A stretch of DNA of 64,000 nt from Microthyrium microscopicum (GCA_010405405.1 MU004247.1:186001-250000), one strand, 5' to 3'; counted from the stretch's first letter, positions 31,557 to 43,596 are shown. Made by a program: numbers and translations. Notes: generated by a model from the letters alone, not told the origin.

Positions 31557-34500
31557 ATGGCGAGCCAGAACGCATATCTCAAATACAAACAAGACCAGCG
31601 TCATCTTGTCCGCTGGCTGCTCAATTGCTCCAACAAAATTCTGAAGTTGTCATTGGAACCCGAATGCCAGCGTGAGTTGATGATAGTACCAGCTCGCCCA
31701 ATGCAACGGATCTGATCCGCTATCATGATTCTCCAATGGTAAAGAACAAAACTAAAATGTCATTTTCATAGTCAAGGTCAATACTACTGGCGAACTCAAC
31801 ATCAAAGAATTCGTACCTGTTTCTAGCCTCGTGGCGAAGCATGTAGATCCGGTTCCGTCCACTATCTACACTCTACTGCAGGTATGCCCTTAGAGCCCCA
31901 GGACTTAGTACTACTTAATCCTATTGGGATCTTGTTAGATGCTAACTGAATGACTCACAATAGTCTGTGATAGCTGCTCGGATTAAGTTTAACGCAATTT
32001 ATGCAGAGATAGCAGCGAACAAACCAGACCCAGAAATTGAACGGAAGAATGTTGGCCATAAAAAATTCATTGACGTCCTAACTGACGCTTTCAACATCTT
32101 GGGAGGCGAAAAGTGGGATCGAGAGCGAAAAGCGTCGACCAGTTCGAGCGAGGAAGAAGACCTAGATGAAGTCATCTTTGCGAACAAGTTTAGTATGCTA
32201 AACGTCAACGATGAAGAGGAGAAAGAGGACGCAAGTGATGAAGAGGATGAGCCAACTAGCAATGCTACAGGTTCGCGTCCTATGACCAAGCCCAGAAGCA
32301 AAGCCAAGAAGCGCAAAGGTGGGAAGAAAAAAGGCAAGCCCAAGTTCAAGCCAGCTGCAAAAGAGTCCAATCTCGACGGAGTGCCATTGGAAAGCTACCG
32401 CATTATCGACGACGAAGATGGAATCGTCACCGAATATCTCATGTCTCTCTATTCCTTTGTTCACCAATGGATCGAACTCCGAGATTATATTCAAAAGGTC
32501 TGGCGTCAAGTCTCCTATCAGAGCCTCAATAGTGCAGTGGCGGCAGAAGTTTCCAGCCTTGCCATTGCAATGGTCAAAAAAGCGCAAAATCAAATCTGGA
32601 TAGATTTCCCCAACCACGAGAACTATTACACGATCATGAATACCATTACTCGTGGAGATATAGAGAAGGCACAGAGCAATTATGGTCTCGTTCTGCATCG
32701 GATTGGACCGGACGGCAAGACATCCGAAAAGGTCCAACAGGTCAATGTTGATCTGAAAGAACAATTTTCCATACACACATATCAGACTCTGCTGGCTTTT
32801 GTCAAGGATTTCCAGAACACCCGTACCGGAAAGCCAACCAAGTCCATGCTCGCTGAGATCAAAAACTGGGATCCCAACTTTAATCTCCAACAAGCCAACA
32901 ACGAGCAACGATTGAAATGGCGCCGGGCTTATACCATCAACTGGCTGTATGACCTAGTCAATGTCTTTGCATCCATTGTTACTCAACGAATTTCTATGCA
33001 AGGACAGAAGATTGTGCTCGAAAAGGTGGACTGGTCTCCCAATGGACCTTGGGATGATCATCGCAGACTATACGGCTTGAATGAGGTATGTGATATTATC
33101 TCTAGACGCTTGCCCTGCACCAGCCAATTGTGGTTAAAAATGCACCTTTGATTTTTTGAGACTAATCTGATTGCCTTAGTTTGCTGGCGAGATCACTTGG
33201 CTTGCGATGCAGACGCCTGGTACCGATATTCAGCAGAAAATACTGCCTCACACGGTCTTCCAACTCCAGTAAGCTTCGCTCTATGACATGTGTTTTCTTA
33301 TCCAGGTTTCAACGTTTGGATCGAAGGTCCGCCAACAATATGAAAGCTGACTTTATGACACTACAGGTGCATTGTAGACTCTTTGGCGACCTCTCGAGGA
33401 TGGACACTACATCCTTTAAGAGGCCATGTCCTGTATCCTCCTGCTCGGAGATTTCGCCCTCGAAGAGACGTTGATCTCTTCATGGATCGCGAAAACAAAC
33501 GGCCCAACCATGGTTACTGCCACGGTGTTGACATTTTGAAACAACTCTATAACAAGGACGCAGCACTGCATAGAAACCCAGCTCGTCATGAAGCCTCGGC
33601 AGGTCTGCTTACCATATTTCGTCAAGACTTTATCAACTGGCTTGGGGCATCAAAGTATCAAAGCGGGCTAACGAATGTTCCCCCATCACGCTTCACGAAC
33701 ACAAACTCAAATGGCTTGTGGGAGTATTCGCCGGCATTGTGTGGTTTTGGTCTTATGGAGGCATTGGACCTATCCTTCACCATGGGTCTCACTCTTATGG
33801 ACCGAATTCCTGAGCCATTGTGTCTCATACACTTGCACAACCTGCTAGTCCAGAAAGGCTATATCATTCAGCCAGTAGGATTCTATGCTACTATGGCGGA
33901 GCTTTACCCCGAGGCGTTTTTTGCTGATGGGAAAGCGCCAACGTCAAATTTCCAGGAAGCTTTCAGAGCCCATTGCAGCCGACCTCGAGCCCGCGGGCAA
34001 AATGCGCGACGATCTATGTCCAACTATACGAATTTCTCTCGAATCTTGAATCAAATGGAAAATGACAACTTCAAAACCAAGTCATTGCTTCGAATCTTTC
34101 GCGAGGCAGGTTGGGATGCGGACCGAGTGTCCGAGGCAGATATCCCAATCATGTCTATATTATGGATGCTACGCATCGGTCAAATCAAGCTAATCACTGA
34201 CCCGGCTACCGGTGAGAAAGTGCTGCCCGATACAGAACTTGTGCGCCGCAGCAAAGCCAAGTTACCTGAGAAGGCTTTACTGCAAATTACTGGCATATGG
34301 GAGAAGCAAGCAAAGCAACAGGACGAGCCTATTCCAGAGGAACTCATGAAAACACTCATGAAAGACATGGCCGGCTATAAGACTGGTCCTGCTTATAAAG
34401 GACCTGGCGGTATGCGTGATTTGACCGGCTCGCAGTTGCTGGATTTCCTCAAACTTGATTTCGTCTCCGATATATGTGGTTCACGACCGCTGTCTAGTAA

Positions 34501-38436: not shown

Positions 38437-40022
38437 CTACATGATGCAACACAGAGGCCCAAGTATTAATGCTGCAGCCGAAATGCCCAAGGCTCCTGTC
38501 ATCACACCTAGCTGAGAAGTTGTTATCTTTCTCGAGTAACTTGCCTCCTGCATAACCCGGTATCTCTCCCGCTCGTCCATTTGCATTTGAATCATCATGG
38601 CCTGGTTACGAAGTTCCAGTGCCTGAATCTCAGCTTGTCGTTTGGCCTCCTCGAAGTTGCGGTACTGTTCCTGCAGTTTTGTTGAATTCTCATCCATGGT
38701 GTTCAGTTGGATTAGCTCCTGACTAAGGTTCTTGTCTCTTTGCAACACAAGGGAAGATGTTGTTCTCTCCAAAGCCAGCATCTTTGCCTCCTGCTGATCT
38801 GCCTCTTTACTCATTTCGTCATGTCGTCGAAGCAGCTTTTCCATATCCTCACGTTGCCGATTCATCTCATCTTCGTGTATCTGCCGCTGCTGCTCCATGG
38901 CCTCTTTTTCTTGCTCTTCCTGGGCAATCTTGTCTTTCAGTAGACTGTCAAAGTTTTTACGCAGGTCTTGGAGCTTGTTCTGGCTCATTTGCATTTCATT
39001 CTTGTACTTTTCTTGCATCTCCATCAATCTCTCAACATTCTCCGAATCATTTTCCTCGAGGTCCTCATCTAGTTCTTCTTGATTGTCTCGTAATCTGGAC
39101 TTGGCCCGCTCTCCTTCACGGATAGCTTTCTCTTCCAGTTTTCGACCAGCAACGGTGTCTCTCACCTGCAGTCCCTCATCAATCATCTCACGTTGAATCT
39201 TTAAGACTATAGAGCTTCGCTTGTTGATGAATTGTTCGACAATCTCCAGCGCGGATGCGCGAGTGTTGTAGTGGCGGAGAACCCGACTTTTTTGCTTTAC
39301 CATGGCTCCCCAGAACTCATCCGTTGTTTCGAGCTCTTCTTCACGACGTTCCCCGTCTTCTAGGCTCACTTTTTCCCAGAACGTGGTAGCTAGCACGACC
39401 GAAGGCATACACTCCTCTCCGCAGACATTTTTGAAGACTTCCAGGTTCTTCTTTGCCGTACCTTGCATCTTTGGTTCGTTTATAGGATGAAGATAGATGA
39501 TACCGTTGAGGATAATCTTCGGTTTTTTTGCATAGGCTACTCCGAGCCACATCGCAATATCGGCCAAGATTCTGGTGTCTGGTATGTGGCTGTCGTCGAA
39601 GCCGGGCGTGTCGATCAGCCATATCGTATGGCCCTTGTGTCGAAAAAAGTATAACTCGCAGTCGGAGGTGTCTTCGGGCCAACTTCGTCAGCTCAACCAT
39701 TTCGTATGCATGATCAAAGAGAACGGGGAGATGTACAAGATAGCTGACCATGTCCAACACCAACATCTTGTCCTGTACATAAGGAGATGAAAGTTGACTT
39801 TCCTGCTAGATATTAGCGGATGAGTTCATATCACAGAGAATACTTAGCTAGTAGCAGAGTGTGGTCTTACCCGAACCGGTCTCTCCCATAACAGGAATTA
39901 CGATATCAGAGGGCCTTCTGTTGTCAGCGATAAGCCCCCAGTATCCTTGAATTGTATTGAACGTACTGGATTGTCAATTTCTCCTTCCCTCTAGCATTTG
40001 AAGACTCTGCGTGACTTTCCAT
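38437..40022 (-). CDS. AIG1/GIMAP/septin-clade-like P-loop GTPase with C-terminal coiled coil, hydrophobic tail and CCaX motif (GTPase A, ~467 aa)
   Basis: Introns 39918-39966, 39803-39870 and 39672-39736 give VMGETGSGKST (G1), LIDTPGFDDS (G3), GIIYLHPI, NLEVFKNVCG and LATTFWE. These are followed by an E/Q-rich coiled coil and the ending LGVMTGALGISAAALILGPLCCIM*. Confidence 0.88.
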
Positions 40023-40451
40023 GTCTGGATATCTAGTTGTAGTTCTTAGACGAGAAAAACTGATAGCGTAGCAATTTGAGGTGTTTGAGAAAACTGTAGA
40101 GAACAATCGTAATCTGAAGCGACACGGCTGAGTTCTTAATGAATTGAATCATGAGGCAAAGAAGGCAACCGGTCACTCACGCATGCAGTTTAGGTCGCAT
40201 TTTATATGCACGTTCCGTTGTGCCGCTTACAACCTTTCCAAGATGATTGGATGCAGATTCGTCAGTCCACGACTCCACGTAGAGTCGAGTCACCCCCTGC
40301 ATTTCGCAAAAACAAGGCAACGAATGAGGCCTGCTTTGGGCATGAGAGGATCCCCAGGTCGCTTCGTTTCTAGTTCCGGGCACTCCAACAGCGAAATATC
40401 TCGAAATTACATCTTGTAAGTTGTGTAACGGTGTCGATTACGCTTGTCTCA

Positions 40452-42161
40452 ATGAGTGAAGGTTCGATCGGGCCAGATGATGTTCTCGTCGCAGTGGTAG
40501 GAGTGACAGGAAGTGGCAAAAGCCAGCTCATACAAACTATAACCCAAGACGACAGCATCGTAATAGGACACAATCTCAAGTCAGGTACGATGCAAGACAA
40601 CCTAGACATTTTGAAGGCATGACAACTGATAAAATTATAGAAACTAATGCCGTCGCACAATATGACTTCTCTGCCAAAGGTGTCAACTTTAAACTTATTG
40701 ACACACCGGGCTTTGACGATACGGATCTCGACGATGAAGATGTTTTCCGAATGATCTCAAAATGGCTTGAAGGATCTTATAGAAAAGGACAACAGCTGAC
40801 TGGTATTATTTACCTTAACCGAATAATCGACACTCGTCAAAAAGGCTCCGCCATCCGGAACTTGAGAATGTTCAAGAAGCTCTGTGGAAAGAATAATTTC
40901 AAGAACATCATTCTTGGTATTACCTTCTGGGACAAGGAGCCAGATCTTCATGTTGCAGAAGCGAGAGAGAAGGAGCTAAGGAAGACGCCAGAATTCTGGG
41001 GTGACATGATTGCCCAAGGCTCGCGTGTCGAACGGATCCCGAACGAACGCGAAGCCTGTATCAACCTCTTGCTAAGCCTAGCCCCAAACGAAAAAGTAAC
41101 TCTCTGTATCCAGAGCGAATTGGTCGACCAAGGCCTTTCGCTTGAAGAGACTGCCGCCGCAACCGAGATTCAGAACTATGAAGAACTCAAAGCTATTCGT
41201 GATCAAGAGGCTCGTAGTCTACAGGCACAGAAGAAAGCTCATGAGAGTGCGATCAGAAAGAAAGATCGCCACTTGCAGAGCCTCATGATGAGGGCAAGAA
41301 TAGATTTCGAGGCACAACAGCTAGCCGATCAACAGGCAGAAAGGGCACTGGAAGAGGAGAAGCTTGCGATCTTGCAGAAACAGGAAGAATCAAGGCGACA
41401 AAAACGAGTACAAGAGCAGAAACAGCGTCAACTAGAATCGGCGAAACTCAAAGAACAACAACGTGAGCTACAAATAAGCATTACTACGCGACAGAACAGG
41501 GATAGACACCAACGCCGCGTTCAAAGAGAACACAGGAGGTCGTTAGCTCATATTGCATCAATCAAGTCGCAGGCAGACTTGATCAAGACGTCCATGGGAT
41601 ACCGAAGAGTACAACAAACGGTCCAGGCAAACCCTCACTTCAGTGAGGGCGCCTTTTGTGATGTATGTTTACGCCACGTAACCATTGACACGCGATTTTG
41701 GAGTACGTACTGTCAATTTAATGGTATGAATTCTGCTGACTTATTTTGACAGGCTGCGCGGGATGTACCGAGAAGTTCGATTTTATAATGTGCAACATAT
41801 GCAAGCAGACAAAGCAGTATATATGCTGGTGCGACCCGATAGACTACCCAAACAGCGCTCATAATTTGCGACCAGCAACCTTTGGTCCTGCTGCTTGGCC
41901 ATGTCCACGAGCCGTACGGGGAGCTTATGATCTACACTGCGATAGCTGCTCCAAGCCACCAGGCAGTATATATCTTCGTATGTGGCCTTCATCAAGATGG
42001 ATGTCAGATGTTTTGCTAACCTTTCAGATTGCTGCATATGTTGCAATGATAATTTTGATTTGTGTGTAGAGTGCTGGGGACGAGGGGCCCATTGCCAAAA
42101 CCCGACATCACATTTCCTGATTCCATTCGGATGGGTTCCTCCTGGGGAACGACCACCTTGA
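40452..42161 (+). CDS. AIG1/GIMAP/septin-clade-like P-loop GTPase with coiled coil and two C-terminal ZZ-type zinc fingers (GTPase B, ~517 aa)
   Basis: Introns 40585-40640, 41703-41752 and 41978-42027 give VVGVTGSGKS, LIDTPGFDDT, GIIYLNRI, NLRMFKKLCG and GITFWD, then a coiled coil. The C-terminus has CDVC..WSCAGC..FIMCNIC and CDSC..YLHCCICCNDNFDLCVECWGRGAHC..H. Confidence 0.88.
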
Positions 42162-43009
42162 TTACAACAGGCCGATCATGTAATGTTTCAGTGCGTTCGA
42201 CCTTCTGGCAAACGGGAGAGATACCTACCTACTTAAATTGGCTCATATCTGGTTAATCGTGGATATAGAAAGAGCCACTGGAGTTTGATTTGGCGATCAA
42301 CAATACTAGACTCCATGGATTCATAATACATGGTCTTGTTTCTGAGATTGAGTATGATGGAGATCCGTTAAGATAGACTGATCAACCAATGCGAGACTCA
42401 ACTATTTTCAGGCGAGCTGTCAATGTTATCAAGCCTGGTCTATTGCTGCGATTCTTTGAGACGAGTAAATACTTGAGTATATCCCTCCCCGATCAAATAA
42501 CAAGAAGTACAAAGTGCAAATAGATACATTATGAATTCATTTGCCATAAACACGGGCCTCCACTCAGCTGAACGCCAAATCCACGTTCTGACATATACGC
42601 CGGTAAACTTATTCTGAAGCCCGCAATATCTACTCGACCTTCTAGCGACATTCGCGCCAAGCAGTTCAGAGGCTCTAAATTATTGGATAATGAAGACTTT
42701 CATGTGAAATATAGTAACAGCCAGTTGCGGATGCACCTGATATGTCTTACCCGATATGGCAAAACTCGGCCTATTTTAAGGTACGATGTCATGAAAAACC
42801 TTTAGTTAATTCTCCGGTACCTGAGCTAAATTCCACATGCTCGAACCCACTTTCAGCTTCATAGTTTCTATGCCAAAGATGAGTACTGTAACAGTAACTA
42901 TAAGTAAAGCAGAGACTTCTGCTTCCGCAAGTGGTTCCTCAACTTCCGTTCACCTTTCTACTCCTCTAGCAAAACCGGACCTTCATTCAATTCGGATGTT
43001 CCATTCATC

Positions 43010-43596
43010 ATGGCCAACCTTTATACTCGCCTAGTTTTGCTCTTGACAATTGCGATCAGTCCAACTCTGTGCTTGCCTCAACATCTACGGACTGGGGCTA
43101 CGTCGGGCCAGTTGACTTATTACAAACCGGGGATGGGCGCTTGTGGAAACTGGAATGGTGAAGGCGATGCGATTGTGGCAATCAGCCATATCGTATACGA
43201 CGAAGGTAAATTCCGAATACACCAAGCCGTTGCATTTGTGAGAATTATATATTCTGCAAGCAGTGTGGCTGTGACATTTCAACAACACTCGCCTGGTCGT
43301 TGGCTTGAAATTGCTAGACTGATCGTTCGATAGGAAATCGTGATGGAAATCCAAATAATAACGCGCATTGCGGCCGACAGATCAAGATCACCAGTGTCCA
43401 TGGACTTCCTGCAGACCAGGTTGTTACTGTACAGGATCGATGTAAGTGTGATTTGCAGAGATCTGCTAGATGCAAGCTGATGGTATGTCCAGGCGAGGGT
43501 TGCGCAGCTGGAGATTTGGATGTTCCAGAACAGCTGTTTCAAACGTTTGCACCGTCGTCAGCTGGGCGTATTCCTGTCGAATGGTATTGGATGTAA
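43010..43596 (+). CDS. Small secreted RlpA-like double-psi beta-barrel (loosenin/expansin-like, Asp f 7-like) protein
   Basis: Signal peptide; GQLTYYKPGMGACG, IVAIS, NPNNNAHCGRQI, VTVQDRCEGC, DLDV, GRIPVEW; introns 43206-43333 and 43442-43492. Confidence 0.88.

Follow-up and report, generated by a model that had tools for sequence, protein, structure and literature searches.

The region studied here spans positions 38437–42161 of a 64,000-nt stretch of DNA from the fungus Microthyrium microscopicum (the window) and contains two neighboring genes, A and B, which encode GTPases of one family and are transcribed away from each other. The minus strand carries gene A (ATG at 40022–40020, stop at 38439–38437) and the plus strand gene B (ATG at 40452–40454, stop at 42159–42161), and their start codons are separated by 429 bp (40023–40451). 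The deposited proteins, P0001 for A (468 aa) and P0121 for B (517 aa), are both named hypothetical "G domain-containing" proteins. An earlier description of this DNA, hereafter the sequence-only reading, had reported two intron-split divergent genes with a spacer of about 430 bp, and the coordinates, the spacer, and all motifs that it quoted are indeed present.

The transcript evidence consists of two contigs of one public run (X1), whose kind was guessed as RNA and in which the depths of A and B are not comparable. These contigs skip six introns, three in each gene and all with ends of the form GT..AG or CT..AC, at 39672–39736, 39803–39870, and 39915–39966 in A and at 40585–40640, 41703–41752, and 41978–42027 in B. 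Because exons are joined over all six introns, both genes are real, transcribed, and spliced in the X1 sample, which also agrees with the co-expression envisaged by the sequence-only reading. In gene A, the coding part of exon 1 occupies 39967–40022, upstream of which the contig extends to 40061. Exon 2 (39871–39914) encodes PSDIVIPVMGETGSG and is represented by a 44-nt contig piece whose joints skip 68 and 52 nt, and exon 3 (39737–39802), likewise defined by contig pieces and joints, runs from the second half of the P-loop to GHGQLS. The last exon (38437–39671), which encodes G2–G5, a long helical region, a hydrophobic tail, and a CaaX box, is an open reading frame (ORF) that matches residues 59–468 of P0001 at 100%, its edge being given by the RNA joint 39671/39737. 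In gene B, whose contig starts at 40470, exon 1 (40452–40584) carries the ATG and the P-loop (40500–40523). Exon 2 (40641–41702) encodes the remaining G domain with a candidate arginine finger, R110 (40835–40837), followed by a helix and the start of a first ZZ-like finger; exon 3 (41753–41977) encodes the end of this finger and the start of a second one, and exon 4 (42028–42161) the end of the second finger and the C-terminus. The intergenic region 40023–40451 is shared by both genes and presumed to function as a bidirectional promoter; only short and weak repeats were found in it, and no promoter motif is claimed.

The deposited model of B equals the X1 contig, whereas that of A differs from it. 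At two NAGNAG-like acceptors of A (39803–39805 and 39915–39917, minus strand), the contig takes the distal AG, so that A comprises 466 rather than 468 aa. The transcript encodes TIQPSD and GETGSGKS where P0001 reads TIQRPSD and GETGSAGKS; the extra residues of P0001 are R20 and A35, and A35 interrupts the Walker A motif. The transcript form has a canonical Walker A, as in the relative P0011 (GITGSGKS). Judging from a single contig, alternative splicing may take place at these two acceptors. Domain scans of deposited models with a Walker A motif broken in this manner may under-call the family.

Both proteins start with a G domain. The P-loop of A reads GETGSGKS and that of B GVTGSGKS, the segments LIDTPGFDD, GIIYL, and TFW are common to both, and further related motifs read NLEVFKNVCG and EFWGAM in A and NLRMFKKLCG and EFWGDM in B. 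The canonical elements of TRAFAC GTPases, namely the G1 Walker A (in A, from the RNA-supported splice), the G2 Thr, and the G3 DxxG, are present, and DTPG is invariant. In addition, an intron follows the GH..LS motif at an identical place and in the same phase in A and B. Comparison of the large exons by BLASTP gave 39% identity over 192 aa with an E-value of 6e-35, which is far beyond chance and indicates that A and B are paralogues.

To which class these G domains belong was examined at the levels of domain families, fold, and profile. In Pfam, MMR_HSR1 scored above its cut-off in both proteins. AIG1 (PF04548) reached 17.1 bits in A and 19.7 bits in B, below its gathering score of 27, and it stayed below this score in relatives as well (26.2 bits in P0183 and 24.1 bits in P0011). 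Septin (PF00735) scored 21.7 bits in B against a cut-off of 26.2 and gave no match in A. An AlphaFold2 (AF2) model of B, built with 106 sequences, has a predicted local distance difference test (pLDDT) value above 90 over residues 11–210. Searching the PDB with this model by Foldseek gave pea Toc34 (1h65) as the best match (E = 1.5e-11, template modeling score by target 0.61, root-mean-square deviation [rmsd] 3.6), followed by GIMAP7 (3zjc), Toc33, GIMAP2 (2xtp), and GIMAP1/4/5, with septin-2 and translation or Ras-like GTPases ranked lower. The matches to GIMAP7/2/1/4/5 had E-values from 1e-10 to 1e-7 and 198–243 aligned columns, and the B model has the GIMAP/Toc-type G-domain fold with a helical extension. 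Similarly, a structure search with the whole model of a relative, P0085, using VIA-align gave Z scores of 15.5 for Toc33 and 15.3 for GIMAP7 (rmsd 3.8 over 195 residues). When the family profile was compared with PDB sequences, GIMAP7 (7.7e-9) and GIMAP4 (5.5e-8) were followed by septins (1e-7 to 1e-5), Toc120/90 (2e-5), GBP1/GBP5 (about 5e-4), and Toc34 (2.5e-3); all of these matches span G1–G3 only, and the better E-values of Der/EngA are owed to its two G domains. Thus, their identity and the fold and profile matches support A and B as paralogues with a Toc/GIMAP-like G domain. The label "AIG1/GIMAP-like" of the sequence-only reading is fair at the fold level, as seen with Foldseek, but does not extend to membership of Pfam AIG1, whose scores are sub-threshold. 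The likeness to Toc proteins is likewise an analogy and not a membership, because the host is a fungus without plastids.

An arginine located eight residues past the Tyr of GIIYL (Y-L-H-R-I-x-D-x-R) is nearly invariant in the family: 232 of the 250 G domains in the alignment have it, among them every one of the 14 rows of the ZZ type, B (R110) included. We take this position to be the site of the arginine finger that acts in trans in Toc34 (R133) and GIMAP7 (R103). In the available passages of a paper on septin evolution, TOC34/159 and AIG1/GIMAP, grouped as "paraseptin" GTPases, are noted to possess R-fingers. Further downstream, T-x-W is conserved, and TFW is positionally plausible as the G4 variant proposed in the sequence-only reading. 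At the next residue, where the G4 Asp would be expected, solely the ZZ clade has D (12 of its 14 rows) or N (the other two). Across the 250-row alignment, no consistent catalytic asymmetry between anchor and adaptor members, in the sense of an Arg finger or G4 Asp in one partner only, was observed.

Behind the G domain, both proteins continue into long helical regions and then end in different ways. B has a single helix at residues 216–362 in the AF2 model, and the putative helix of A lies in a stretch of 201 residues (245–445) free of Pro and Gly, 64% of which are E, K, R, Q, D, or L. The C-terminus of A reads ...VMTGALGISAAALILGPLCCIM, and consists of a Gly/Ala-rich hydrophobic segment, VMTGALGISAAALILGPL (38452–38505, minus strand), directly followed by the CaaX box CCIM (38440–38451, minus strand). 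Segments similar to the former occur in relatives; in A, the best 16-residue window of the tail has a Kyte-Doolittle mean of 2.2. The box has the Cys at position -4, two mostly aliphatic residues, and the terminal X of a CaaX sequence, and is a predicted farnesylation signal, prenylation itself being a prediction. A CaaX box in which X is Met is a substrate of farnesyltransferase. Among 231 fetched relatives, 64 have a C-x-x-M end (most commonly CVVM, CTVM, or CSVM), which is preceded by a hydrophobic stretch in 28 and lacks one in 36.

The last 135 residues of B contain two cross-brace Cys/His modules. The first, a ZZ-like finger with a cross-brace C-x2-C (41654–41862, plus strand, residues 383–435), is split by the intron 41703–41752, and the second, a ZZ finger (41926–42113, plus strand, residues 457–502), by the intron 41978–42027. 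Finger 2 matched the ZZ domain of p62/SQSTM1 over residues 457–513 with an E-value of 4.7e-4 and with the C-x2-C pairs aligned; it retains the D-L-C motif as well as the Asp in C-D-x-C, and one acidic residue of the pocket is changed, D-Y-D of p62 reading N-F-D in B. Weaker matches were found between finger 1 and the ZZ domain of PRT1 (E = 0.33) and between B and the ZZ domain of Schizosaccharomyces pombe Nbr1, and the Atlas leads for the B C-terminus pointed to ZZ clusters at 0.88. A motif placed right after the helix, FCDxCL, is near-invariant in 14 B-type relatives, most of which end at it since prokaryote-style gene calls were cut at the intron. The C-termini of A, with its membrane signal, and of B, with its ZZ fingers, are therefore complementary in the way that the sequence-only reading had described.

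We then asked how widely such pairs occur. A scan of metagenome contigs of the Joint Genome Institute with a B-type alignment yielded 25 intron-bearing loci, in which partners were located by tblastn with A and B. Twelve of them are informative; for the other 13, the sequence available upstream is shorter than 1.6 kb and does not show whether a partner is there. A second family member was found upstream, on the opposite strand and head-to-head, at 10 of the 12 (L002, L003, L004, L008, L011, L012, L013, L016, L019, and L020), with 630–1750 bp between the first high-scoring segment pairs. Several loci are near-identical, and the 10 paired loci represent about 4–6 lineages. In these metagenome loci, members of the two clade types are thus adjacent and head-to-head in independent lineages, as in a conserved divergent pair.

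Two types of pairs can be distinguished. L004 and L008 are of the same type as the window and combine a member having a hydrophobic stretch and a GCVVM end (this end was observed in L004 and the near-identical L010) with a tandem-ZZ member, whose introns in both loci lie at the two positions seen in B. The second type, represented by L002, L003, L016, L019, and L012/L013, combines a membrane-tail member with an adaptor of 620–730 aa that carries a beta-rich repeat domain without a Pfam family; an SH3 domain was confirmed in L001 and L003. The adaptor C-terminus therefore varies among ZZ-ZZ, a single ZZ, and SH3 plus beta-repeat, and the membrane-tail partner is kept. Head-to-head recurrence with exchange of one C-terminus was the check that the sequence-only reading had named for its proposal, and the outcome is in favor of it. 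The tails of the second type (L002, L003, L012, L013, L016, L017, and L019, as well as P0183) contain two short hydrophobic stretches with N-P between them and a Gly-rich end; they lack a CaaX box and resemble a membrane hairpin more than a single transmembrane tail. The beta-rich C-terminal domain was also seen in P0085 (residues about 370–575, pLDDT about 90), where it forms about five three-stranded repeats with no Pfam family and a recurring motif, [VI]-[AS]-L-G-x4-[YW]. It is present in the plus-strand genes of L001, L002, L003, and L007, and SH3 precedes it in the metagenome copies. A Protein Atlas search with this domain of P0085 returned only unnamed Ascomycota clusters at no more than 0.90; the fold search with the whole of P0085 was filled by G-domain matches.

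Further pairs were indicated by deposited proteins. In Bathelium, M1822_005197 (P0085, beta-repeat) and M1822_005198 (P0183, tail) have consecutive locus tags, and in Mytilinidion, P0115, which ends in CWVM, and P0176, a ZZ-clade protein with one ZZ-like finger, follow each other in accession number, the orientation being unseen in both cases. The contigs of P0003 and P0126 have an equal reported size (35450), as do those of P0048 and P0133 (108751), which suggests, without proving it, that each two proteins are encoded on one contig. P0128 of Didymella consists of a G domain, a coiled coil, ZZ, and SH3. The predicted protein P0232 combines G domains of both clades, the one from the anchor clade being 74% identical to P0035 and the one from the ZZ clade having the start of a ZZ finger; either the fusion is genuine or the models of neighboring genes were merged.

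Phylogenetic trees were based on about 178 G-domain columns and built by FastTree for 250 rows and by IQ-TREE in quick mode for 80 rows. The type of C-terminus follows the tree, with 44 label changes in the 250-row FastTree tree compared with a mean of 117 after shuffling. In the IQ-TREE tree, A falls within a clade of 10 tail-plus-CaaX rows, including P0003 and P0048, and B within a clade of nine ZZ rows, including P0133 and P0124, each with 99% support in the Shimodaira–Hasegawa-like approximate likelihood ratio test (SH-aLRT). Forcing A and B together cost 90 log-likelihood units and was rejected by the approximately unbiased test (p-AU = 4e-5). Placement in different, well-supported clades and this rejection indicate that the pair is old and is not a species-specific inverted duplication, the case that the sequence-only reading had set against its own proposal.

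The family itself is a large group of Toc/GIMAP-like ("paraseptin") TRAFAC GTPases of Pezizomycotina, in which a G domain is followed by a long helix. A HMMER search of 1.84 billion representatives with the B G domain found at least 5917 clusters at 50% identity with E-values of 1e-3 or less, 3700 of them at 1e-10 or less and 525 at 1e-30 or less. Other members carry WD40, FHA, C2H2, or SH3 domains. Of the best 150 representatives listed (P0232–P0354 among them), 37 have 2–4 G domains per predicted protein, P0232 being an example, and P0007 reads past a CIIL end into one half of a further member; such proteins are either real, like GIMAP8, or mergers of neighboring genes, and in either case family members cluster.

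Among the 32 longest ORFs in the rest of the window are those for Rpc34, TIM21, thiamine pyrophosphokinase (TPK), an M1 aminopeptidase, a Zn2Cys6 factor, an RSN1-type channel, and an AAA ATPase, as well as matches to GH43, DUF2418, and DUF6604. The plus-strand ORF 31964–33148, about 5 kb from A, is the one that matched DUF6604 (E = 5e-35), a family from fungi whose function is unknown. On the other side, the B transcript contig runs about 906 nt past 42300 and over a plus-strand ORF (42908–43330) with a signal-peptide-like start, for which no Pfam family was found at E-values of 1e-4 or less; the extension represents either a long 3' untranslated region or a merged contig that takes in the following plus-strand gene.

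A full-text literature search, which covered main texts, found no functional study of this family and no paper on NCU05928. In the accessible part of a preprint on nucleotide-binding leucine-rich repeat (NLR) proteins of Sordariales, an orthogroup with exactly the Pfam signature of the family was excluded for lacking C-terminal repeats. Excerpts of an eLife survey assign an effector role to AIG-type GTPases in the conflict systems of bacteria, and within the available text of a paper on incompatibility in Podospora, MMR_HSR1 appears only among the down-regulated domains of ribosome biogenesis. The AIG1+Hint proteins of Glomeromycotina, as far as the accessible portion of their description goes, have a different architecture.

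Considering these results, we see a roughly even chance that the locus is an instance of a conserved divergent fungal pair, in which contacts between G domains join a membrane-anchored GTPase with a soluble one that serves as adaptor. A and B probably act as a unit, because the combination of anchor and adaptor recurs in distant fungi. In the mechanism that we propose, A would be held at the cytosolic face of a membrane by a farnesyl group together with its hydrophobic tail, and B would be soluble and bind a client peptide through its ZZ fingers (through SH3 or the beta-repeat in other lineages). This client could be the N-terminus of a protein, by analogy with the ZZ domains of p62, PRT1, and Nbr1. 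In their GTP-bound forms, A and B may then pair across their G domains in the manner of Toc33/34–Toc159 and GIMAP2–GIMAP7, with the near-invariant Arg of the family (R110 of B) as a putative arginine finger in trans. In this way, capture of the client would be coupled with a membrane site, GTP hydrolysis setting its timing, and the long helices probably contribute coiled-coil pairing or higher-order assembly. The heterodimers of Toc33/34 with Toc159 and of GIMAP2 with GIMAP7 are precedents for such pairing, and the PDB title of 2j3e supports the dimerization of Toc33 and Toc159. A prediction for the complex of A (residues 1–440) and B (residues 1–366) was folded without alignments and scored 0.00, which is evidence neither way.

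Several observations weigh against this anchor-and-adaptor interpretation. Contact between A and B is putative, as is the hetero-oligomer proposed in the sequence-only reading. The hydrophobic segment that abuts the CaaX box is topologically odd; if it were a true transmembrane tail, the box would lie in the lumen and out of reach of the prenyltransferase. As for the ZZ fingers, Pfam gave ZZ_ADA2 (PF25299) at 16.5 bits against a cut-off of 27.5 and did not report PF00569, the ZZ region of B was modeled at a pLDDT below 50, and a word-based search with residues 372–517 of B matched only itself. In the G domain, A has a Lys at the position of the arginine finger, as do 8 of 43 tail-plus-CaaX rows. 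Outside the ZZ clade, the position of the expected G4 Asp is occupied by E, S, G, K, or R in the 250-row alignment (E in A), so nucleotide specificity and catalysis may be non-canonical. With regard to recurrence, L021 and L023 showed no second member within at least 3.6 kb of upstream sequence. Both belong to another clade, and these two unpaired loci among the 12 imply that pairing is a property of some clades rather than of the whole family. General clustering of paralogues, as indicated by the predictions with several G domains, also contributes to adjacency. Finally, co-expression is known from a single library.

Of the other explanations, a role in cell-autonomous defense or allorecognition, with B as a sensor whose ZZ fingers detect non-self or damage and A as a membrane executor that oligomerizes and remodels or damages a membrane, similar to GBP, IRG, or GIMAP proteins, seems unlikely to us. 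In favor of such a role, the family is highly diversified and very large, with 5917 clusters at 1e-3 and 3700 at 1e-10 as given above, its C-terminal domains are shuffled (ZZ, SH3, beta-repeat, WD40, FHA, and C2H2), and its fold class includes the GIMAPs; immune GBPs use CaaX prenylation, and GBP1 and GBP5 are among the weak profile matches. On the other hand, Pfam detected no death-fold, HET, HeLo, TIR, NACHT, pore-forming, or enzymatic effector domain in A or B. The defense or allorecognition role suggested in the sequence-only reading found no support in the surroundings either, since NLR, HET, and death-type domains were absent from the pair and from the 32 longest neighboring ORFs, which are of housekeeping types. 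ZZ and SH3 are generic scaffolding modules, the types of pairs are kept over distant lineages without turnover, and no expression data linked to infection or incompatibility were found in the literature; the Sordariales study, in the part cited above, also left out the orthogroup of the same signature. We regard as equally doubtful that A and B are two co-regulated but physically independent paralogues, each of which forms homodimers at its own site, with the layout kept by a shared bidirectional promoter. Their common 429-bp upstream region, the presence of both transcripts in one library, the ability of Toc/GIMAP-type G domains to homodimerize as well (also reflected in PDB titles), and the general clustering of family members would all fit such an arrangement. 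It does not account for the fact that the pairs consistently consist of a membrane-tail clade and a domain-bearing clade instead of any two members, or for P0232, in which both types are joined in a single chain.

A septin-like scaffold, in which A and B would co-polymerize through alternating G interfaces and coiled coils into filaments or patches on a membrane and be linked by SH3 or ZZ to actin, endocytic, or polarity proteins, is considerably less probable still. Septins, too, are built of a G domain with a long helix C-terminal to it, septin-9 and septin-3 are among the sequence matches, and partners in other lineages carry SH3, yet the Pfam Septin score of B (21.7 bits) is below the cut-off of 26.2, Toc34 and GIMAPs outrank septin-2 in Foldseek, and any filaments are hypothetical. 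Practically no probability can be given to an annotation artifact or to an inverted duplication that is recent, species-specific, and without joint function: the common position and phase of the intron after GH..LS would agree with it, but A and B are only 39% identical, equivalent pairs exist in other organisms, and both genes are spliced and transcribed. With A and B in different clades, the p-AU value of 4e-5, and the pairs found elsewhere, we consider this explanation ruled out.

The anchor-and-adaptor interpretation could be extended to a fungus-wide set of two-gene modules, in which an exchangeable reader detects a protein end or motif and triggers GTP-dependent assembly on a membrane together with its prenylated partner, as a counterpart of GBP/GIMAP immunity or of selective autophagy linked to N-degrons. 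What the ZZ type detects could be a neo-N-terminus that proteolysis exposes under stress or attack. We consider this extension improbable, more so than either defense or independent action of the two genes. The family is among the larger fungal P-loop families and is functionally uncharacterized, and divergent pairs of an anchor and an exchangeable domain, which parallel Toc34–Toc159 and GIMAP2–GIMAP7, offer a testable handle on its function. If such pairs do act in defense or quality control, paraseptin-type immune GTPases would extend to fungi.

Among known systems, the head-to-head NLR pairs of plants are similar in layout only, being divergent paralogous NTPases one of which has a lineage-variable integrated domain; A and B are TRAFAC and not STAND proteins, contain no LRR, WD, or TPR repeats, and have no known cell-death output. 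GBP1/2/5 are alike in outline, as large GTPases with a long helical part, a C-terminal CaaX box, and assembly on membranes. However, their G domain is that of the dynamin superfamily and their matches (about 5e-4) are weak and within G1–G3, and the fungal proteins are not members of that family. The ZZ domains of p62/SQSTM1, PRT1, and Nbr1 are readers of N-termini or cargo, and finger 2 of B aligns to that of p62, but in B the finger is located on a GTPase rather than on an autophagy receptor or E3 ligase, and binding of a ligand is putative. Septins share with A and B a G domain and a C-terminal coiled coil, are obligate hetero-oligomers of paralogues, and appear among the matches (septin-9 and septin-3); they differ in the sub-threshold Pfam Septin score of B and in their lower fold rank.

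In fold, the closest likeness is to the GIMAP/AIG1 and Toc GTPases. GIMAP7 and GIMAP2 are among the top fold matches, and GIMAP7 and GIMAP4 are the best single-domain profile matches. GIMAP2 is membrane-anchored and forms a pair with GIMAP7 as a soluble activator, and GIMAP paralogues are clustered in the genome. The fungal proteins differ by adding a helix of 150–200 residues, a CaaX box, and ZZ or SH3 domains, and any link of theirs to immunity is hypothetical. In the Toc system, which consists of receptor GTPases for chloroplast import, a small tail-anchored GTPase, Toc34/Toc33, works with a larger paralogue bearing an extra domain, Toc159; to our knowledge, the Toc genes do not form a divergent gene pair. 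Toc34 is the best structural match of the B G domain, and Toc G domains dimerize with an arginine finger, according to the title of 2j3e and the available passages of the septin-evolution paper. By contrast, the Toc proteins belong to plant plastids, lack ZZ fingers, a CaaX box, and a long coiled coil, and show weak sequence similarity to the family (Toc34, E = 2.5e-3 with the family profile).

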